A DNA stretch of 64,000 bases from a virus (Duplodnaviria > Caudoviricetes), in IMG/VR virus record IMGVR_UViG_3300028832_000096, one strand, 5' to 3'. Shown in pieces: positions 4,812 to 40,264 of the stretch (the first letter of the stretch is position 1; each line of letters opens with the position of its first letter). The position numbers were made by a program, and so were the translations under genes. Below the pieces are notes generated by a model, which was not told where the DNA came from, did no database searches, and was given only the letters and a program-made list of their open reading frames with translations.

Positions 4812-6410
4812 TCAAAACCATTTGGCTATCTTATACACATATAAACGATTCTTAGCTCGTGTAATCGCTACATAGTAAAGATTACTCATCTCTTCACTGC
4901 TGTCGATTTGGAATGAATACGAACCAACATTCATAACGAATACATTATCATATTCCAGACCCTTTACAGAGTGTATAGTTCCTACATAAAGCTCAGACGA
5001 TTTGATTTCGGTAGCAGTTTCTTTGATATAATCTAAGAAATCTCGTCCAAACAATTCTTTATCTGGAACAGCGATACCTTTTACTTTAAGTAATTCCTCA
5101 GCTTCTTTAATCTTCTTAGCAATAGGCTTCGGGTCAGTTGCAATTGTTCTCAACTTGTTTATTTTCTTAGCATCGCTATCTATCTTAGTATTGTTGCCAT
5201 AAGTCTTAAGGAACCAATTGATGTCAGGAGCGCGCTGTGCTGATAACCTGATATACTCACCATACTTGTTAGATGTAAGATAGGAAGCTAACCAACCAAT
5301 CATGTATTCATCTGAAACAGCGCATTCAAGTAGATGTACTGTTTTAGTGTCTCGGCTTGAAGTATATTCGACATCATTTTTATTAAGATAAGAAGTTACT
5401 TCACTAAGCTCTTTATTAGTTCTTACAAGAATTGCAGAAGTTCCTGAAAGATTAGAAAGTTCTTTTAATACATCATCAATGCTATCTGTATTAATTGCTT
5501 CATATCTAGAAGGACCATCGACTATCTTAGTTACTACCTTTTCACCATCTCTAGTTCCTTTCATCTCAATGCGGTAAGAATCATCAGCATAACTTGCACT
5601 GAATGTATTTGCAAATTCACATATCTGATTTGTGGAACGATAGTTAGTGAAGAGTGTTATTTTCTCCCAACCTTCACTTCCTGAAAGGGCCTTGATATAG
5701 GTATTATCAGTGCCGCGGAAAGAATAAATGTTCTGCAAAGTATCTCCAACGAAGAAGAAATTTGTATCAGTAAATGAATTAAGGAACTTAATCTGATGTG
5801 CATCTGTATCCTGGAACTCATCTACAAATATGTATTTATACTGCATCTTGTAAGGTTTTGTAGAAATATGGTCAGCAGCAAACAGGTCTGCAACCTCACT
5901 ATTGAGTTTGTCAAATGTTATCAAGTTATCTTGACGAAGCAATCTGTAAACTGCTTTATCAAACAACTCAGCTTGGAACTGTTCCTTCTTAGACAACGCA
6001 TCTCTATGTGCTAACTGGTCGGAAGATAAAGTAATCTTGCACTGTGCTTTTGCTTTTTCAATTATCTCTTTTTCTTGAGCTTCCGATGCAATGTCCGGAA
6101 TACTCTCATAACCTAATCCAGAACGAATTGCAGGGTCTTTGCAAACAATTGAATAGCAGAATGAGTGAAATGTCCTGAATTCAGGCGTTAGCTGACCTAC
6201 ATGCTTAGTTTCGTATCTTTCACGCATCTCAGCACCTGCAGCATTTGTAAATGTTAACGCCAAAATAGCAGATGGAAGAACTCCATCGTCAACTAACTTA
6301 GATATTCTTTCGAGAAGAGTGAAACTTTTTCCGGCACCTGCTCCTGCCAAACAAAGTATTCTATCTGACTTAGAATTTATCGCCTGTAATTGTTCTTTAT
6401 TTGCGCCCAT
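4812..6410 (-). CDS. UvrD/PcrA-like SF1 DNA helicase
   Basis: AGAGAGKS, LTFTNAA, TFHSF, VDEFQD, VGDTLQNIYSFRG, NYRS, TIHSVKGLEY, YVAITRAK. Confidence 0.95.
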   Translation of the reverse strand: MGANKEQLQAINSKSDRILCLAGAGAGKSFTLLERISKLVDDGVLPSAILALTFTNAAGAEMRERYETKHVGQLTPEFRTFHSFCYSIVCKDPAIRSGLGYESIPDIASEAQEKEIIEKAKAQCKITLSSDQLAHRDALSKKEQFQAELFDKAVYRLLRQDNLITFDKLNSEVADLFAADHISTKPYKMQYKYIFVDEFQDTDAHQIKFLNSFTDTNFFFVGDTLQNIYSFRGTDNTYIKALSGSEGWEKITLFTNYRSTNQICEFANTFSASYADDSYRIEMKGTRDGEKVVTKIVDGPSRYEAINTDSIDDVLKELSNLSGTSAILVRTNKELSEVTSYLNKNDVEYTSSRDTKTVHLLECAVSDEYMIGWLASYLTSNKYGEYIRLSAQRAPDINWFLKTYGNNTKIDSDAKKINKLRTIATDPKPIAKKIKEAEELLKVKGIAVPDKELFGRDFLDYIKETATEIKSSELYVGTIHSVKGLEYDNVFVMNVGSYSFQIDSSEEMSNLYYVAITRAKNRLYVYKIAKWF

Positions 6411-10854: not shown

Positions 10855-12453
10855 TCAAACCTCATATTTACATTTATTTGGGAACTTTTCTTCAAGCAAT
10901 TTAAGTAATTCTTCGCGTGTCTTTTTATAATCTTTCACTTTATCTGAGTCATTTAAACAAACTACCTGTAACATATCACTAAATAATGCCCTACGTATAT
11001 CCGTCATACTTTCGTGCATATCTATGTACATGTAACCACAGATGTCATTAACATAATTGTCTGTGTAATATTCATAATAAGGATAAATATATTGGTTCAG
11101 ATTCTTAGGCATTCTAAGCCTAGAAACGCTACGCTCTATCGCAGCTTTGCAAGCTTCACCGACAATTTCCGTTGTTGACTTACGCATAGGCATGATGCCA
11201 TGTTCAGGGCATATTAACTTACCAACAGGATACTTTTCTTTGTGGAAGGTGTTAGCAATTAAATCTAAACCATTTCGACAATGAACTCTATACAGGTTGT
11301 TAGTAGGATAGGACTCATGACGTAAGAAGTCGATATGCGGTTTACCATCAGTAAAAAAATCTCCAACAACTAATGGATTTATTGGAAACATATCATCGTT
11401 GAAGTACAAGAAATATTCTGATAGGTCAGGAATGTTATACAAGAAACATTCGATAGTGCAACTATTGAATGTAGGCAAAAACTGAGCAGGTATGAAGTCC
11501 CTATGGTAAACAATTTTAACATTTTCTTGATTAAGCCATTCAGGCGCTTGACTTTCACGAGCGAGGAGAAGTATTACATTTCGGACAAAAGGCATGTTGT
11601 CTGAAATACTTCTAAGTAAATATTTCAATGAACCCCAATCTCTAAATCTTACATTGCTTACTGTATAGATACCTGTAGTGGTTGTATAGTCCTTCATCCA
11701 CAATTTGTCTCTAGCATTTACATAAGGAATAACAACATCAATATCAGATATATCGCTACCTTCATAATGCTGTCGTTGTGTTGCTTTGATTAAAGCAGAA
11801 GTATATCTCCGCATGTAATTCCAGTTGTAAATTTGTTCTTTTGCCCAACTAGAAGGACATTGTCCAGGACCTACATACTTGAACGAAGTTTCAGTCACAC
11901 AGTCCTTTGGAAAATCAAACGCTTTATCTGGAAATTGCTGAAAACACATTGCAACAAACAAATCGTCTTCAAAGCCTTGACTGATTTCTGGATTCATGTC
12001 AGGCATATCAATTTGACTGTATATCTCCTTTGATACAGCAAGTAGCATCAAAGGGCATGCGGTATGTCGTATAACACCTATACCGCCAGGATGATTATCT
12101 ATTTCTGAAAGGTATATAGACGGGTCATCACACTGAATCATACCGTCATCATCTAGCATTATAAGATAATCATAATTTGATTTAATAAACTGTTTTCTAA
12201 GCTCTCTGCGTGCTCCTAGTATTCCGAGTTTATCATATCTTAGAATTTTCAGTTTGTTTTTAATTTCAGGTGGTTGATAGTCTTGCCAATTCTGAGCAAT
12301 TATTAGAATATCAACTTCCGGCCATAATTCCGAGAGCTTACATAGTAATTCGGAACATCTCCTACTTCTCTCACGACGTGTTTCAATATGATACTCAGTA
12401 TCATTGTTAGGGAAGTAAGATACAATTCCGAATACTTTCTTAAGTGATTGCAT
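10855..12453 (-). CDS. GT-A-like + Stealth (CpsY/SacB-like phosphotransferase) fusion, paralog 1
   Basis: N-terminal DYLIMLDDD; Stealth CR1 DIDVVIPYV, CR2 LKYLLRSI...FLPTFNSCTIE...YFNDDMF, CR4 VCLND. Confidence 0.85.
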   Translation of the reverse strand: MQSLKKVFGIVSYFPNNDTEYHIETRRERSRRCSELLCKLSELWPEVDILIIAQNWQDYQPPEIKNKLKILRYDKLGILGARRELRKQFIKSNYDYLIMLDDDGMIQCDDPSIYLSEIDNHPGGIGVIRHTACPLMLLAVSKEIYSQIDMPDMNPEISQGFEDDLFVAMCFQQFPDKAFDFPKDCVTETSFKYVGPGQCPSSWAKEQIYNWNYMRRYTSALIKATQRQHYEGSDISDIDVVIPYVNARDKLWMKDYTTTTGIYTVSNVRFRDWGSLKYLLRSISDNMPFVRNVILLLARESQAPEWLNQENVKIVYHRDFIPAQFLPTFNSCTIECFLYNIPDLSEYFLYFNDDMFPINPLVVGDFFTDGKPHIDFLRHESYPTNNLYRVHCRNGLDLIANTFHKEKYPVGKLICPEHGIMPMRKSTTEIVGEACKAAIERSVSRLRMPKNLNQYIYPYYEYYTDNYVNDICGYMYIDMHESMTDIRRALFSDMLQVVCLNDSDKVKDYKKTREELLKLLEEKFPNKCKYEV

Positions 12454-18154: not shown

Positions 18155-19744
18155 CTAATTTTCATACTTGCATTTTTCAGGAAATTTAGTTTCAAATATA
18201 GAAACCAATTCTCGCTGAACTGTATCATAATCGGCTACTGTTCCCATATCATTTATACAAACAATGCAAATATGTTTGCTATTTAATATTATATGACGAA
18301 TATTAAATAAGTTGTCATCAATTTCAGTATACACATAAGGGCAAAAATCATCAATGTAGTTACCTGTGAAGAATTGATAGTAATGATAGACATACTGATT
18401 GATGTTTTGCGGTGCTCTAGTTTGTGTTATGCTCTTTTCCAATACATCCTTTAGGGACTTGAATACATTCTTTACGCTAGATTTTAACATAGGCATAGCG
18501 CTGTGTTCAGTAACTATCAATTCGTTTTCATCATAATTAGGTAAATTGAGCATTGTTGTAATTGCGTTTATACTAGACCGACATTCCCAACTAAATGCAT
18601 CTTGTGATTCTAAATTACTATGCTCTTTAAATTGCAATAAGGGCTTTTCATCTACAAAGAAGTCAGACGATACCATATCATCTATCGGAAAAATATCATC
18701 ATTGAAATATATAAATTTCTCTGATAGTCCTTTGATATTAGATAAGAATGCTTCTATTGTGCAGCTATTGTATGTAGGTAGAAATTTTTCTGGTATGAAG
18801 TCTTTGTGGTAAACTATTGTAACATTAGTAATCCATTCAGGTACTTGGGTTTCATCTGAAACGATTAGTACAACATTGCGTACAAAAGGCATATATCTAT
18901 CTATACCTCTTAATAAATACTTCAGCGTGTTCCATGACCTAAATCTGTTAGAATATAATTCTGATTGTTTAGTATTTTTGATATATGCTTCTTGCCATCC
19001 AGATTTAGACGAATCTACATAAGGAATTACAATGTCGATGTCTTTCTCGTTGCTACAAGGAGCTCTTTTGTGTTTAACAGCTTGAATATATGCATTAGAT
19101 ATACAGTTCATATAGTTCCAATCAAGCTGAATATCATCTAACCAAGTAGAAGGACAACTATGATTTGGTTTATAAGAAAGGTCTGAAATACAGCCTTTAG
19201 TGAAGTCAAATGCTTTATTAGGAAATAACGCAAAACAAGATTCGGCAAATACTACATCGCCAAATCCTTCGCATTTTTCTGCATCAATATCTGGATAATC
19301 GATTAGGCTATAAATAGATTTAGAAATAGCTAAAAACGTCATAGGATGTCCTATGCGACGAACTAATCCAACCCCATCAGGGTGGTTATCAATTTCTTTA
19401 ATATAAACCGAGGGGTCTTTGCATGATATAACAGTATCGTCATCTAACATAATTAGATAATCGTATTCTGATTCTAAGAACTCCTGCCTGAGTACTTTTC
19501 TTGCACCTACTATACCAAGCCGTTTTATCTTAGAATTAACTATGCGAAGTTTGTTTTGTATTTTTGGAGGTTTATAATCTTCCCAATTCTGTGCAATTAT
19601 AATGATGTCGATAGTAGGCCATAAACTGCTCAAAGATAAAAGCAATTCGGAACATCTCTTTGTCCTTACACCTCTAACATACTTATGGTAATCAGTATCT
19701 GGGTCTGGAAAATAAGAGATTATTCCGAATACTTTCTTAATCAT
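18155..19744 (-). CDS. GT-A-like + Stealth fusion, paralog 2
   Basis: KKVFGIISYFP, DYLIMLDDD, DIDIVIPYV, FLPTYNSCTIE, YFNDDIF, VCIND; colinear with 10855-12453. Confidence 0.85.
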   Translation of the reverse strand: MIKKVFGIISYFPDPDTDYHKYVRGVRTKRCSELLLSLSSLWPTIDIIIIAQNWEDYKPPKIQNKLRIVNSKIKRLGIVGARKVLRQEFLESEYDYLIMLDDDTVISCKDPSVYIKEIDNHPDGVGLVRRIGHPMTFLAISKSIYSLIDYPDIDAEKCEGFGDVVFAESCFALFPNKAFDFTKGCISDLSYKPNHSCPSTWLDDIQLDWNYMNCISNAYIQAVKHKRAPCSNEKDIDIVIPYVDSSKSGWQEAYIKNTKQSELYSNRFRSWNTLKYLLRGIDRYMPFVRNVVLIVSDETQVPEWITNVTIVYHKDFIPEKFLPTYNSCTIEAFLSNIKGLSEKFIYFNDDIFPIDDMVSSDFFVDEKPLLQFKEHSNLESQDAFSWECRSSINAITTMLNLPNYDENELIVTEHSAMPMLKSSVKNVFKSLKDVLEKSITQTRAPQNINQYVYHYYQFFTGNYIDDFCPYVYTEIDDNLFNIRHIILNSKHICIVCINDMGTVADYDTVQRELVSIFETKFPEKCKYEN

Positions 19745-31961: not shown

Positions 31962-32891
31962 TCATGATACAGGCCTCCTAATGAAATGACCGCATTCTGT
32001 ATCATATGTATAGCCTAGATTGAATTTAATTACAGCGCTAATGATTTCATCTAATGACTGTCTTCCGAGGTTGCGAATATTTGTAAATGGCTTATCATAG
32101 TTGACGATATCATGCAATGTGTTCAACTGGCTTCTCTTCAAGCAGTTATACGTCCTGATAGAGAAATCCATATCCTCAACAATGATGTCTGAAAGAGCTA
32201 CACGTTTTACAGGTTCAGGTGTAGGCTTAAGTAATCTAACAGCTTCAAGTCCCGCAGCATACTGCTTGAGCTGCTCGTTTTCTTCCTTGAGCTGCTCGAT
32301 AGTAGTTTTTGATGCAAACAACTCTTTCAATGCAAAATGAACTTTGCGAAGAGCTTTAAATTCAATCTGTCTTACTCTTTCTCGTGTAAGTCCTAATTTC
32401 TTACCAGCTTCCTCAAGTGTAAGGCTATCTCTATAACGCATTTCGACTACAGCCTGCTCACGGTAATTAAGTCGGTCTCTGAATATTCTATCGAATTCAA
32501 AAGGAGTAACATTGCGATAACTCATATCGAATTCGTCGTCATTGTTAATGTCTTCAAAGTACGACATAATAGCTACACCTGCAAGGCTGTAGTTTACAGT
32601 AGCGATTATGAAATTGTAGGGAAAAATATCTTCGAGTGTCTGAGTGTGGTCAACCATCAATCTTGCAGCGACCACATTAGAGCAAATCTTTTCAAACTTT
32701 GCACTAAAAAGCTTTTCAAGAGCCTTCTGAGCCTTAGGGTCAGGCAAACTAACTAACTGAAGCCATTTCTGAATTGCTGCTTCTGACATTCCAAGAAGTG
32801 CAGCAAAATCTCTATATGTGAGATTATTATTCTTGCAATAAAGCCTGATATTGTTGGCCAGACACTCTTTCTGTTCTTCGGGTTTATACAT
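31962..32891 (-). CDS. XRE-HTH + sigma70 region 4 + RNAP alpha-CTD fusion regulator
   Basis: LTYRDFAALLGMSEAAIQKW (HTH); LNYREQAVVEMRY..TLEEAGKKLGLTRERVRQIEFKALRK (sigma4); DMDFSIRTYNCLKRSQLNTL..IRNLGRQSLDEI (alphaCTD). Confidence 0.88.
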   Translation of the reverse strand: MYKPEEQKECLANNIRLYCKNNNLTYRDFAALLGMSEAAIQKWLQLVSLPDPKAQKALEKLFSAKFEKICSNVVAARLMVDHTQTLEDIFPYNFIIATVNYSLAGVAIMSYFEDINNDDEFDMSYRNVTPFEFDRIFRDRLNYREQAVVEMRYRDSLTLEEAGKKLGLTRERVRQIEFKALRKVHFALKELFASKTTIEQLKEENEQLKQYAAGLEAVRLLKPTPEPVKRVALSDIIVEDMDFSIRTYNCLKRSQLNTLHDIVNYDKPFTNIRNLGRQSLDEIISAVIKFNLGYTYDTECGHFIRRPVS

Positions 32892-33527: not shown

Positions 33528-33662
33528 GCCATTTATTCGATATAGGATACAGAATAAATGGCGAAAGACTGTATCCGAAGGTTCGCTTATTTTGAAAGGA
33601 GCGGTTATAGGGAATGGAAAGAAACAAGACCCATAACCACTGTCGAGCAAGCCTACAAGAGC
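33528..33662 (-). ncRNA. repeated structured RNA, copy 3
   Basis: GCCATTTATTC/GAATAAATGGC and GGATACAG/CTGTATCC pseudoknot; inner hairpin fully paired with G-U only on minus. Confidence 0.7.
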
Positions 33663-33704
33663 AACAAGTAAATAGTGTTATTAACAGAAGTCTTCTGCAA
33701 CAAC

Positions 33705-33791
33705 TGGTGGGAAAGGTAGGAGTCGAACCTACCGAGTCATCTAACAACAGATTTACAGTCTGTCCCGCTACCAGCTACGGACTACTTTCCC
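33705..33791 (-). tRNA. tRNA-Tyr(GUA)
   Basis: GGGAAAG/CUUUCCC, loop CUGUAAA, long variable arm, CCA. Confidence 0.95.
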
Positions 33792-33794
33792 ATA

Positions 33795-34230
33795 AGGTAG
33801 GAGGCCTAACCTCCCTTGTCGGAGTTATCAGTCATTCTCCGAGTTCCCGCTAGCCGGCGACTGAGTACCTCCGGGCACGGTGTTCAGGTAAAAGAAGCAT
33901 CGGGCACATGTCGGCTTGCCAGTTGACATAAGGACTGTTACTACCTTAGTCGATGCTTGAGTCGGGAGCCTACTTTCCCCTGCAAGGCCCAACCTTACTT
34001 GTCTGGCATCTCACCAGAGTTCCCTCTGTCTGATTTGTATACCGCAAGTATGAGGTGGGTGGGCAGTTGCAACTCCCCAGTGCGGTTTTGCTACGATAAG
34101 ACCTGCCAAGTCTCTGTCTCTTGTATTCGTAGCCATACTCTGTATCTTGCTCACCGTTCCAAGATAGTATAAACGCCGATAAATTTCGTGTATCGGTCAC
34201 GGCTCGTTTTGGCAGGAGAGAGCGACCCCT
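33795..34230 (-). ncRNA. large ornate structured RNA (GOLLD/ROOL-class candidate)
   Basis: GC-elevated, no credible ORF, at least 10 helices and 2 pseudoknots visible, flanked by tRNA/tRNA-like units. Confidence 0.55.
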
Positions 34231-34368
34231 TGGTGAAGGGTGATAGGAGTCGCACCTATCAGTTGATAACATTCCTAGCCTAACGCAATCCCCTCAAAAA
34301 TTTCTTCTTGATTCGCTACTGCGTAGTTATCGCTATAGGATAACCCGTCTACTTTGCGGCAACCCTTC
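34231..34368 (-). ncRNA. tRNA-like RNA with greatly enlarged central domain
   Basis: GAAGGGU/ACCCUUC+ACCA acceptor, T-arm AUAGG-UGCGACU-CCUAU, ~85 nt between D and T arms. Confidence 0.65.
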
Positions 34369-34485
34369 ATGTTAATGCAGATTTGTTTGTCGTAAACCTC
34401 TTAGGTCGCGCTCACCCGTATGAATACTGTTAGAAGTTCTGCTTCTCCTAGTGACTGACTCTTATCGCTGGCTGTCACCTACTCC

Positions 34486-34525
34486 CGCCAAGGTTTTTCT
34501 AGAGAGGTACTTGGAACTACACCTC
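34486..34525 (-). ncRNA. mini-pseudoknot repeat
   Basis: GAGGU/ACCUC stem; loop CCAAG pairs with CUUGG after AAAAA. Confidence 0.55.
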
Positions 34526-34527
34526 AT

Positions 34528-34630
34528 TAGTGAAGTAGGTTAGGACTCGAACCTAACATGTCCGTGTCTTTTCGATTTAAGGTTCTTGCACGAACTAACG
34601 CCATAGTGTCTGCCGTTCCACCACTACTTC
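34528..34630 (-). ncRNA. tRNA-like RNA (Leu-type D arm, no canonical anticodon arm)
   Basis: GAAGUAG/CUACUUC acceptor, GGUGGAACGGCAGACAC D arm, GUUAGGUUCGAGUCCUAAC T arm. Confidence 0.7.
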
Positions 34631-34805
34631 ATATTTGAGGGTTCACCTTGTATCACCCACAGGTTCTCTTGTTTAACTACCGTCTTTAACCACCTTATCA
34701 ACAAGCAAGTTACAGTGGTGCAATAGTGACCGCTCACCTAATAGGCTTCTTTGTGTTTTTACTCCTCCATCCCACTATCGACTTCGAAAACCTCTAACGA
34801 GGAAA

Positions 34806-34845
34806 TGAGTTGAGTTTTTGAAGAGGTACTCCTTTGTTAAACTCT
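34806..34845 (-). ncRNA. mini-pseudoknot repeat
   Basis: AGAG/CUCU stem; GAGU pairs with ACUC after AAAAA. Confidence 0.45.
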
Positions 34846-34846
34846 T

Positions 34847-34962
34847 AGGTGAAGTAGGTTAGGACTCGAACCTAACAGGGAAATCTCCCGATTTCCTGCC
34901 TCCTATGTCATCTTAAATAAGATGCAACTCGGACGCTGTGTTTACCTATCCACCACTACTTC
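34847..34962 (-). ncRNA. tRNA-like RNA with extended anticodon arm and long variable arm
   Basis: Acceptor and T arm identical to 34528-34630; CAUCUUA/UAAGAUG hairpin replaces the anticodon loop; GGAAAUC/GAUUUCC variable arm. Confidence 0.7.
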
Positions 34963-35115
34963 ATATCTAATGTGAGTGTAAGAATAACCTAACCACGACT
35001 GGTTCGACTTGATTATTCCCATTTGTCGGTAGCACTCACAACTACCGCTGTCCTATTATCGTTGACAGGTACGCCTAACCATTATTAACGCCTTTGCGCT
35101 ACAGGGTATAGGAAT

Positions 35116-35267
35116 TGGAGACGGGAGACTAGATTTCTACTAGCAATTTCTAGGAGCTACCCCAGCCGTGTTTCACTATACCAGCTACGTATAGTGGCAA
35201 TCGCTGTATTCCATCATCGATAGCGCTACTCGACAACGGGTACAGATTACCTTTACACTACTCCCTC
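35116..35267 (-). ncRNA. tRNA-like RNA with ~70 nt D-loop insertion
   Basis: GGGAG/CUCCC acceptor + UCCA, GUGU...ACAC D stem enclosing two hairpins, T-arm-like CUAG-UAGAAAU-CUAG. Confidence 0.55.
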
Positions 35268-35304
35268 TGGTGATAAGTTTTTAAGAGAGAACCTACCAAA
35301 CTCT
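35268..35304 (-). ncRNA. CCA-tailed mini-pseudoknot
   Basis: AGAG-UUUGGUAGGUU-CUCU-CUUAAA-AACUUAUC-ACCA. Confidence 0.65.
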
Positions 35305-35471
35305 AAGGTATAATGATGTACTATGGCACATCCGAAGATGTAAAATCCACATTCATTTTGTGCGTACATCAGGCACTCACCTGACCAGCGGAGTGATATA
35401 GGTCATTGTTCCGTGACATTAGCCTTTGTCCGAACATCTCCATCTCCTAGTGGCTAACTCAATGGAGTGGT

Positions 35472-35508
35472 TGGCGATAAGTTTTTGAGAAGAACCTACC
35501 AAACTTCT
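35472..35508 (-). ncRNA. CCA-tailed mini-pseudoknot
   Basis: AGAAG-UUUGGUAGGUU-CUUCU-CAAA-AACUUAUC-GCCA. Confidence 0.65.
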
Positions 35509-35564
35509 GAATATAAGGCACATCTAAACGATTTCATAATGTATAAAATTGCTGTAAGTGCCTT

Positions 35565-35594
35565 TGGTGAGAGGTACTTGGGATTACACCTCTC
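35565..35594 (-). ncRNA. CCA-tailed minihelix
   Basis: GAGAGGU-GUAAUCCCAAGU-ACCUCUC-ACCA; related to 34486-34525. Confidence 0.5.
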
Positions 35595-35713
35595 TGGTTT
35601 AGGGCGGGTAACATAGACATAACGCTTGTCATTTCTGATACCCTGTGTCCACCCGTTCATCAAACACGTTACACTGACTTGCACTGTCAGGATTTGCGAG
35701 TGTACAACCCTAA

Positions 35714-35750
35714 TGGTGATAGGTTTTTAACAAGAACCTAACAAACTTGT
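35714..35750 (-). ncRNA. CCA-tailed mini-pseudoknot
   Basis: ACAAG-UUUGUUAGGUU-CUUGU-UAAA-AACCUAUC-ACCA; stem covaries with sister copies. Confidence 0.65.
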
Positions 35751-35786
35751 AGCTTTCATTGCCCAGGATAGCTATAACTTGGGCCT

Positions 35787-35863
35787 TGGTGGACAATCAA
35801 GGACTCGAACCTTGGACCAACCGGTTATGAGCCGGTAGCTCTGACCAACTGAGCTAATTGTCC
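35787..35863 (-). tRNA. tRNA with CAU anticodon (likely Ile2; Met not excluded)
   Basis: GGACAAU/AUUGUCC, CCGG-CUCAUAA-CCGG, CCA; resembles Firmicutes tRNA-Ile(LAU). Confidence 0.9.
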
Positions 35864-36050
35864 ATTGGTGTTGGTGTGACCTATAGATATTCTTTGTGGT
35901 CAACTTTTCTCCAACTGTGGTCGTATGATATCCTACGATTTAGTCAGATTCTCTAACCCCTGGCAGGCGGTTTCCTATAGGTATTTGCATGCTATTGTTT
36001 CTCCGATTATCTCGTTGAGCTCTACAAGATAATAAGATTCCCTACCGCCT

Positions 36051-36175
36051 TGGTAATAGATAGGCTGTTCCTCGAACTCCATTTAACTACTGCCCAGCCG
36101 TTACGCTAAGCTCTTTCGGAATTGGGATTCGTCCAAGTCTCCCCACGCCCTAAGAGGTCCGTAGCACCTATCTAC
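36051..36175 (-). ncRNA. CCA-terminated structured RNA (~125 nt)
   Basis: Terminal helix UAGAUAGG/CCUAUCUA followed by UUACCA; begins 1 nt after the tRNA-Leu CCA. Confidence 0.5.
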
Positions 36176-36176
36176 T

Positions 36177-36264
36177 TGGTGCGAATAGTCGGATTTGAAC
36201 CGACACGGATTATTAGTCCGACGGATTTTAAGTCCGTTGCGTCTGCCAATTTCGCCATACTCGC
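36177..36264 (-). tRNA. tRNA-Leu(UAA)
   Basis: GCGAGUA/UAUUCGC, loop CUUAAAA, long variable arm, CCA. Confidence 0.95.
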
Positions 36265-39171: not shown

Positions 39172-39801
39172 TTAATACAAGAAATCTCTAAATATTAATT
39201 GACCATTGTTATGTTCAACAAACATCTTTTCTTGCTTATATCTTGCAGGCCTAACTGAATTAATAAGCCGCATGATATCATTCCAAGTTTTACCTGACCT
39301 CAATACATTGAACTGAATTGGATATCCACTAGTGCCGTCTTTGTCATAACACTTGTATTCAATGTTGTTTTGGTCAAGTACTTCACATAATTTTTGAGCA
39401 TCTTCTGAAGCGGTAGAAGGATACGTAAACTTAAGAATTACTTCCTTGCCGTCACTACCTTTAATACCAGATATTCTAGGTTGATAGATTTCGTAACTTA
39501 TGGAATTATCACCACGTATAGAACTTTCTTTTGGAATGAAGTAGCCACTAACTTGATAAGATTTACCTGACTCTAAATTATAGGGGTTATCAGGATTAGC
39601 TACAGTGCTATCATATATTTTACTAATCAGACACTTGTTGCCATCAGCATCTTTAAACTTTACAAATATATGATAATCACCTTTGTAATAATCGCCATCA
39701 AAAGAATATTCATAAACAAGAGATTTAGTTTCCCTATCTAACTCAATTATCTTGTTATCAAGTCCGTAGAATTTCTTAGATGATTTGATGTAGCGTTTCA
39801 T
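39172..39801 (-). CDS. leader-bearing putative internal virion protein
   Basis: MKRYIKSS leader. Confidence 0.6.
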   Translation of the reverse strand: MKRYIKSSKKFYGLDNKIIELDRETKSLVYEYSFDGDYYKGDYHIFVKFKDADGNKCLISKIYDSTVANPDNPYNLESGKSYQVSGYFIPKESSIRGDNSISYEIYQPRISGIKGSDGKEVILKFTYPSTASEDAQKLCEVLDQNNIEYKCYDKDGTSGYPIQFNVLRSGKTWNDIMRLINSVRPARYKQEKMFVEHNNGQLIFRDFLY

Positions 39802-39805
39802 ATAT

Positions 39806-40264
39806 TTAATCCTTTAGCTTACTTCTTTTAATACCATTCAAGTACTTATCACTAGTATGAGTGCTCTTAGCAGCTTCCATCGTTACACCTAAGATATTTA
39901 CTTTAAATGTATGTTCTTCATCAATGTCGTAAAAAGCTGAAAATTCTAATGGAATATAAGTATCATCTACTGAAAAAGAAGATGGAAAACAACTATCCCA
40001 TTCATATCCTTTACTTTCAAAGTACCTTATTAGTTCTTTGCAATAATCTTCTGGAGTATTATTCCAATCTCCAGTTTCTTCCATCATTCTTTCTCGCTCT
40101 TCTTCAGGTATCCAGCGAATGAACATATCTATATCTGAATCTTCATTTTGCATACCATACGCATAGCTACCGGTAACAATTACTTTATCCTTAATATCAT
40201 TAAGGATTCTTACTAGAGCTGCTTTAGAGCTTAATTTTGATGATGCATTTATATATAGTTTCAT
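39806..40264 (-). CDS. minimal nucleotidyltransferase (Pol-beta superfamily) with leader
   Basis: MKLYINASS; VTGSYAYGMQNEDSDIDMFI (GS..DxD). Confidence 0.8.
   Translation of the reverse strand: MKLYINASSKLSSKAALVRILNDIKDKVIVTGSYAYGMQNEDSDIDMFIRWIPEEERERMMEETGDWNNTPEDYCKELIRYFESKGYEWDSCFPSSFSVDDTYIPLEFSAFYDIDEEHTFKVNILGVTMEAAKSTHTSDKYLNGIKRSKLKD

Follow-up and report, generated by a model that had tools for sequence, protein, structure and literature searches.

The question raised by this locus is what a long stretch of phage DNA encodes when it holds three transfer RNA (tRNA) genes and no credible protein. The DNA is a phage fragment, IMG/VR record IMGVR_UViG_3300028832_000096 (Duplodnaviria; Caudoviricetes), and the window is the whole stretch that was analysed, 64,000 nucleotides (nt) long. 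It encodes a major head protein, helicases and an SbcC-like protein, every one on the minus strand. The block of interest reads in the same direction, from position 36264 down to 33528 (~2.7 kb). A first-pass annotation had described this block as gene-free, raised in GC content and furnished with only three canonical tRNAs, a description that is borne out throughout. The GC content is 0.43-0.53 within the block against 0.29-0.39 in both flanks. The longest open reading frame (ORF) of the array, 100 amino acids (aa), matches the average longest ORF of composition-matched shuffles and is not kept by homologous loci; a hidden coding gene was dismissed on these grounds. ARAGORN and Rfam both find only tRNA-Leu(UAA), tRNA-Met(CAU) and tRNA-Tyr(GUA), and no further family was returned when Rfam was searched at its gathering thresholds and at E ≤ 10 with the whole block and with one constituent, U16, alone.

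The best explanation, to which we would give a probability of about 60%, is that the block strings together independent genes for small RNAs, read in one direction with the three tRNA genes, most of the RNAs borrowing tRNA features and probably being cut apart at tRNA-like joints. The non-tRNA sequence tiles into ~16 units that fall into four classes. The first consists of the tRNA-frame RNAs A, B and C and the degenerate U9, none of which has an anticodon loop. In the second (U5, U7 and U8) each unit ends in a pseudoknot, here termed F1, followed by R-CCA. The third (U2, U3a, U6 and U6b, with U3b only weakly a member) is closed by a terminal stem of 7-10 base pairs (bp), then one base and CCA. 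The fourth (U10, U12, U14 and U16) lacks CCA, and its members have their 3' ends at, or a few bases from, the 5' end of a tRNA or tRNA-frame unit. In order of reading, the features are as follows.

36177-36264, minus strand: tRNA-Leu(UAA), encoded CCA; ARAGORN and Rfam RF00005, 59 bits.
36051-36176, minus strand: U2, 126 nt, 1 nt past the CCA of tRNA-Leu; 10-bp terminal stem, then A-CCA (closure scan and fold).
35961-36050, minus strand: U3a, 90 nt; 7-bp stem AGGCGGU/ACCGCCU, then G-CCA; partial homologues in L002 and L004.
35866-35960, minus strand: U3b, 95 nt; 5' domain conserved in L002 and L010, 3' hairpin GUUGG/CCAAC, then ACCA.
35787-35863, minus strand: tRNA-Met(CAU), encoded CCA; ARAGORN and Rfam, 72 bits.
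35714-35786, minus strand: U5, 73 nt; 5' hairpin or pseudoknot and F1 (4-bp S1, 8-bp S2), then A-CCA.
35595-35713, minus strand: U6, 119 nt; 7-bp closing stem, then A-CCA.
35565-35594, minus strand: U6b, 30-nt hairpin with a 7-8 bp stem, then ACCA; folding z = -3.4.
35472-35564, minus strand: U7, 93 nt; hairpin AAGGCAC/GUGCCUU and F1, then G-CCA.
35268-35471, minus strand: U8, 204 nt; 165-nt multi-helix body including a UUCG hairpin, and F1, then A-CCA.
35116-35267, minus strand: U9, 152-nt tRNA-like RNA; bulged 7-bp acceptor, degenerate T arm, then U-CCA.
34963-35115, minus strand: U10, 153 nt, no CCA; adjoins unit C.
34848-34962, minus strand: unit C; 7-bp acceptor, 3-bp D stem, 6-bp T stem, 7-bp variable arm, tail ACCU.
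34631-34847, minus strand: U12, 217 nt, no CCA; adjoins unit B.
34530-34630, minus strand: unit B; acceptor and T arm as in C, unique insert, tail ACUA.
34369-34529, minus strand: U14, 161 nt, no CCA; alignment A1.
34231-34368, minus strand: unit A, 138 nt; acceptor GAAGGGU/ACCCUUC, then A-CCA.
33795-34230, minus strand: U16, 436 nt, ending 3 nt ahead of tRNA-Tyr; alignments A3 and A7.
33705-33791, minus strand: tRNA-Tyr(GUA), encoded CCA; ARAGORN and Rfam.
33528-33704, minus strand: trailer of three hairpins, the last an 11-bp stem then UUCUUUUAU, which reads as an intrinsic terminator.

The arrangement of the unit ends departs clearly from chance. All eight positions at which an encoded NCCA had been reported (34231, 35116, 35268, 35472, 35565, 35714, 35866 and 36051) do read NCCA, and the claim that such units abut the next one holds when set against shuffled sequence. 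The scan for this asked for units closed by 7 bp or more of terminal helix, with one base and then CCA after it, that begin within 3 nt of the preceding CCA. Five head-to-tail cases were observed against 0.24 expected, and none of 400 shuffles reached five. U9 is a further case of closure with CCA, and was missed by the scan because its acceptor is bulged; the closure of U3b, only 5 bp, lies within the range of chance. The CCA-ended units begin 0-2 nt past the preceding CCA, and the leader context 'AU|G' is common to the canonical tRNAs and the tRNA-frame units. The tRNA frames make up about one quarter of the array and are interleaved with the other RNA classes.

Evidence for the structures themselves comes from related arrays (L001-L020), which were gathered by motif and protein scans of IMG/VR and metagenome contigs and represent at least 12 different phage contigs. 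The units recur across these loci in altered order, with breakpoints that coincide with the unit boundaries. Alignments comprise 2-10 related sequences each. Covariation outside the tRNAs is present in C, A, U8, U9, U14, the U16 core and F1, which upholds the earlier claim that structured non-tRNA RNAs are packed between the tRNAs. In unit C (alignment A6) 12 of 34 pairs are compensatory and 97.6% of cells are paired, a result that none of 500 shuffles equals. Similarly, 11 of 36 pairs are compensatory in unit A (alignment A2; 0/500 shuffles reach the same). Comparison of U9 with its homologue in a 467-kb phage contig (L016) gives 11/45 compensatory pairs, including three of the seven acceptor pairs. 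For U8 (alignment A9, three sequences) the value is 9/49; the covariation agrees with the helices that had been placed around 35310-35471, including the UUCG hairpin, and the consensus fold at 35372-35470, where the first-pass annotation had placed double pseudoknots, is nested.

The tRNA-frame RNAs A, B and C are alike in their 7-bp acceptor, U8, T arm and discriminator A, and in a D stem of 3 bp whose loop is like that of tRNA-Leu; in U9 the acceptor, D arm, T arm and discriminator are present in degenerate form. Inserts of unrelated structure, 59-124 nt long over 24 frames, stand where the anticodon arm would be, and 22 of these frames have discriminator A. The closest counterpart of the D arm is that of tRNA-Leu. 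The T stem is 6 bp in most frames, giving a 13-bp stack, and the T loop often has UGC instead of UUC. B and C have a common frame and different inserts, as befits tRNA-Leu frames with exchangeable inserts. In unit C an extended two-helix arm replaces the anticodon arm, while unit A has a long insert of three helices and the sequence UGCGACU as the loop of its T arm. The acceptor of the type-C RNA in L004 (UCUCUCG/CGAGAGA) has five of its seven pairs changed with pairing retained. A 5-bp anticodon stem with a 7-nt loop scoring above the Rfam threshold is absent from all non-tRNA units. When ARAGORN was run with introns or low thresholds, C was called a 'tRNA-Met with a 22-nt intron' alongside many mitochondrial tRNA and transfer-messenger RNA (tmRNA) calls. 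These calls were rejected; that for C because the arm taken for an anticodon arm covaries as a hairpin of 6-7 bp with a loop of 4-5 nt.

Frames of the tRNA-Leu type are present in eight further viral contigs and three contigs of metagenome-assembled genomes (MAGs), the latter being the only matches to the frame motif in bacterial genomes. L018, L019 and L020 each have a ~197-nt RNA of this type (for example L019 8010-8206) with no encoded CCA and no tRNA gene within several kb, and the frame can therefore exist outside tRNA clusters. Short frame members at L012 3305-3401 (minus strand) and L002 4921-5015 (minus strand) are named by ARAGORN, in the respective order reported, 'tRNA-??? (4-base anticodon)' and 'tRNA-Ile(tat), 95 nt'. 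These labels look like mis-annotations that automatic pipelines would spread.

The F1 module is an H-type pseudoknot with a 4-bp stem S1, a UUU loop, an 8-bp stem S2 directly joined to S1b, an A-rich loop and R-CCA. Stacked on each other, the stems reach 12 bp, as long as the acceptor/T minihelix of a tRNA. Of ten in-register copies, all have a fully paired S2 and nine a fully paired S1; the outer pair of S1 occurs as A-U, U-A, G-C, C-G and U-G. The terminal R-CCA is invariant in 14 copies. Among the stem-closed RNAs, U6b is related to the 5' hairpin of U14.

Among the units without CCA, the core of U16 is a pseudoknotted element of ~115 nt (34094-33960) that is conserved in ten loci and partly repeated near the 3' end of the unit. 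In the ten loci 12 of 26 pairs are compensatory, a value reached by 0/500 shuffles, and they take in a 4-bp pseudoknot in which CCUC/GAGG gives way to CGCU/AGCG. Between the window and L001 the core DNA is 86% identical while the adjacent protein is 48% identical, which places the core above any coding segment that the two have in common. In U14 the 5' hairpin and the central hairpin both covary, and ~75 nt of its 3' part (34369-34445) are near-invariant in eight phage loci, compared with differences of 15-25% in the 5' half. The near-invariant ~75 nt have no match to known families. U14 adjoins a tRNA-frame unit in at least seven of the eight loci; in L010 the next unit starts ~30 nt further on. 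For U10, aligned with L002 and L003 (alignment A5), 7/28 pairs are compensatory, and for U12 (alignment A8, three sequences) 5/29. The counterpart of U12 in L003 adjoins tRNA-Trp. A resemblance of U16 to RNase P RNA (GGAAAGU.GGCUCC and GGUAGUAACAGUCC) was dropped, there being no model match and the first motif being a covarying hairpin. Within the RNA array of L001 a protein-coding ORF (5285-6000) lies between a U16-like RNA and tRNA-Leu; the array thus tolerates gene insertion at unit boundaries, as in T5.

The layout of the units, with acceptor-like ends, abutting N-CCA and CCA-less ends placed at tRNA-like 5' ends, fits release by RNase P and the enzymes of tRNA 3' maturation. Taken with the known specificities of these enzymes and the precedents of T4 and T5, it gives good grounds to suppose that the array is processed in this way. 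The host tRNA-maturation machinery would cut a long transcript at the tRNA-like joints, RNase P acting at the 5' end of each acceptor, and the 3' ends would be completed by exonucleases and the CCA-adding enzyme together with RNase Z or an endonuclease. For B (ACUA) and C (ACCU) RNase Z would act, followed by CCA addition. The 3' ends of U10, U12, U14 and U16 would be made by the RNase P cut at the following tRNA or tRNA-like unit. The outcome would be ~16 stable RNAs besides the tRNAs. It is plausible that the block forms a polycistronic operon closed by an intrinsic terminator: the trailer has a folding z of -5.0, none of 200 shuffles folds equally well, and the terminator hairpin and U tract stand just ahead of the next gene.

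Several observations weigh against an array of separately released RNAs. The trinucleotide CCA is not enriched in the block (35 seen, 36 expected). In 13 of the 24 tRNA-frame units CCA is replaced by CAA, CUA, CCU and similar, so that CCA cannot be a universal requirement at the 3' end. No convincingly placed sigma-70 promoter is present 5' of tRNA-Leu; the sole good match near the start of the block was dropped because transcription would begin within tRNA-Leu. Folding z-scores of single sequences are modest, lying between -1 and -4 as they do for true tRNAs, and were discarded as evidence of structure, being too weak for real tRNAs likewise; the structural case is a comparative one, built from related loci and not from single-sequence folding. 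Because the alignments are small, some of the covariation counts may reflect shared ancestry. Informative homologues of U2, U6 and the insert of B were not found among the related loci: there is none for U6 or the B insert, and the sole homologue of U2 (in L010) is 97% identical and hence offers no test of covariation.

The block might instead yield a very large multi-domain RNA, or a few of them, comparable to ROOL and GOLLD, with the tRNAs embedded and the units acting as domains of an assembly. ROOL and GOLLD are phage-encoded, pseudoknot-rich and found near phage tRNA islands, and the GOLLD linker can carry tRNAs (PMC12286853). The length of U16 and its repeated pseudoknotted core would suit such an RNA, as would the finding that internal promoter and terminator matches within the block are not above chance. 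We consider this rather unlikely, however, as neither ROOL nor GOLLD gives a covariance-model match in Rfam even at E ≤ 10, most units have their own acceptor-like closure and CCA, and the units are smaller and individually mobile, being reshuffled one by one between phages. Lower odds are given to the proposal that the sequence outside the tRNAs works in cis, as leaders, spacers or processing signals, and does nothing beyond tuning how the three tRNAs mature or are expressed. That U10, U12, U14 and U16 always lie just upstream of a tRNA or tRNA-like unit is in keeping with it, and tRNA-like t-elements are reported to serve as processing signals in plant mitochondria (PMC1920247). Nevertheless ~2.3 kb of conserved structure is disproportionate for three tRNAs, the units occur beside different tRNAs or, in L018-L020, beside none, and the near-invariant part of U14, like the covarying inserts, suggests independent functions.

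Two further proposals concern the frames in particular. Aminoacylation, probably by leucyl-tRNA synthetase (LeuRS), would let the tRNA-frame RNAs act in or on translation or aminoacyl transfer, for example by titrating a synthetase or EF-Tu or by donating leucine. LeuRS does not read the anticodon, and the identity of the E. coli enzyme's substrates lies in A73 and tertiary elements of the D arm. The Leu-like D arm, the near-constant discriminator A and the intact acceptor and T arm are thus features that favour charging. Against this stand the absence of an encoded CCA from half of the frames, the mostly 6-bp T stem with its 13-bp stack and the many T loops with UGC for UUC, and we regard charging as improbable. 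That the units are decayed tRNA genes with junk spacers is hardly credible. The frames are clearly derived from class II tRNA, and relaxed ARAGORN settings do give several 'tRNAs with introns', but decay is contradicted by the many compensatory changes, by conservation above that of neighbouring proteins and by the retention of CCA ends.

If the block is an array of small-RNA genes, the question becomes what its products do. The non-tRNA RNAs cannot decode. The first-pass annotation had offered them as possible decoys for anticodon nucleases, a suggestion that finds no support: no non-tRNA unit has a 7-nt anticodon loop, and a decoy role is unlikely for units that lack such loops and cannot decode. 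Our best guess is that they present a tRNA-like shape, as carriers or as mimics, to host or phage factors that recognise the acceptor end or the elbow; mimicry of either is possible. A more specific and distinctly doubtful version is that the phage fields a set of such mimics (pseudoknot minihelices, stem-closed CCA RNAs and anticodon-less tRNA-Leu frames) that soak up or redirect host factors, the frames serving also as self-processing carriers of exchangeable inserts. Candidate targets would be defence toxins that modify or cleave CCA ends, RNase P, the CCA-adding enzyme and LeuRS. If true, the set would amount to an RNA-based toolkit for counter-defence or host takeover without described equivalent.

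That phage tRNA regions contain a few stable RNAs of unexplained function has been known for about fifty years. The array is like these: it is non-coding, shares a strand with the phage tRNA genes and adjoins them. The T5 record (NC_005859) has eight annotated stable RNAs in its tRNA region (RNA1, RNA2, RNA3, RNAI, RNAIII, RNAIV, RNA2H and RNAX). They are non-coding, 73-719 nt long (RNAX being 719 nt) and on the tRNA strand, several of them abutting tRNAs. Like the frames, RNA2 and RNA1 (the latter annotated as a 'tRNA-like stable RNA with unknown functions') possess an acceptor, a D arm and a T arm but no anticodon; RNAI has a 3' stem and G-CCA, and RNAIII, RNAIV and RNA2H have long terminal closing stems. 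In T5, however, the RNAs are scattered among 24 tRNAs and small ORFs, whereas here ~16 units surround three tRNAs with no ORF between them, and a CCA-ended pseudoknot was not noticed among the T5 RNAs. In the T4 record (NC_000866) the species 1 and 2 RNAs, rnaC and rnaD, are small stable RNAs placed head-to-tail directly after tRNA-Arg in the tRNA cluster, and rnaC has a T arm and a partial acceptor. Both are cut from a tRNA precursor. T4 differs in having just two such RNAs and no pseudoknot-CCA module.

The closest likeness to F1 is the tRNA-like structure of the turnip yellow mosaic virus (TYMV) type, in which R-CCA similarly follows a pseudoknotted acceptor-like helix with a 12-bp stack. 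F1 is only ~37 nt, has neither a T/D elbow nor an anticodon-like arm and so falls short of a full L-shaped mimic; the Rfam families of tRNA-like structures have no match in the block. The TYMV type is found at the 3' ends of plant RNA virus genomes, whereas F1 occurs in a DNA phage in several copies per genome.

With the whole block as query, blastn against 50,697 phage records matched tRNAs only, with no similarity to the stable RNAs of T4 or T5, and blastn of U14, A and U16 against deposited phages gave no match. A 22-mer of U14 is absent from bacterial genomes. No description of such an array, of one of equal density or of a pseudoknot-CCA module in a DNA phage was found in searches of the literature. 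The absence of Rfam matches here says little about newness, since none of the T4 and T5 stable RNAs has an Rfam family either. By these comparisons the locus is an unusually dense version of the known phage stable-RNA loci, built from different sequences. With about sixteen stable-RNA-like units in 2.6 kb, most with clear boundaries and a structure backed by covariation, it provides a compact test bed. The motifs new to Rfam are the CCA-ended pseudoknot minihelix in a DNA phage, the ~115-nt pseudoknotted core of ten loci and the near-invariant 75-nt element; annotation pipelines skip such units or call them odd tRNAs.

Other known RNAs were considered for the block. Covariance models for tmRNA, YrlA (Y RNA-like) and RNase P RNA have no match in it at E ≤ 10. 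A tmRNA call by ARAGORN, which appears only at a 70% score threshold amid dozens of spurious calls, was rejected. Stop-codon recoding and suppressor tRNAs were also dismissed: with the standard code the window is densely coding, and no 7-nt loops are present in the odd arms.

The neighbouring genes include several that bear mention. At 39806-40264 (minus strand), 3.5 kb upstream of the array, a 152-aa protein has a Pol-beta-type nucleotidyltransferase domain (Pfam NTP_transf_2, 30.8 bits, cut-off 21) and is faintly similar both to the MntA antitoxin and to the CCA-adding enzyme of archaea; acting on the 3' ends of RNA or countering a HEPN toxin are conceivable roles. Directly downstream of its gene, 39172-39801 (minus strand) encodes a 209-aa protein of no family. 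On the other side, 0.6 kb downstream of the array, a 309-aa protein (31962-32891, minus strand) combines an XRE-type helix-turn-helix with a segment like sigma-70 region 4 (PHROG matches to sigma factors and regulators), and 48% identity is kept in L001. Finally, two proteins of ~530 aa (10855-12453 and 18155-19744, both minus strand) match phrog_7999, a PHROG without known function, over the same residues and are probably paralogues.

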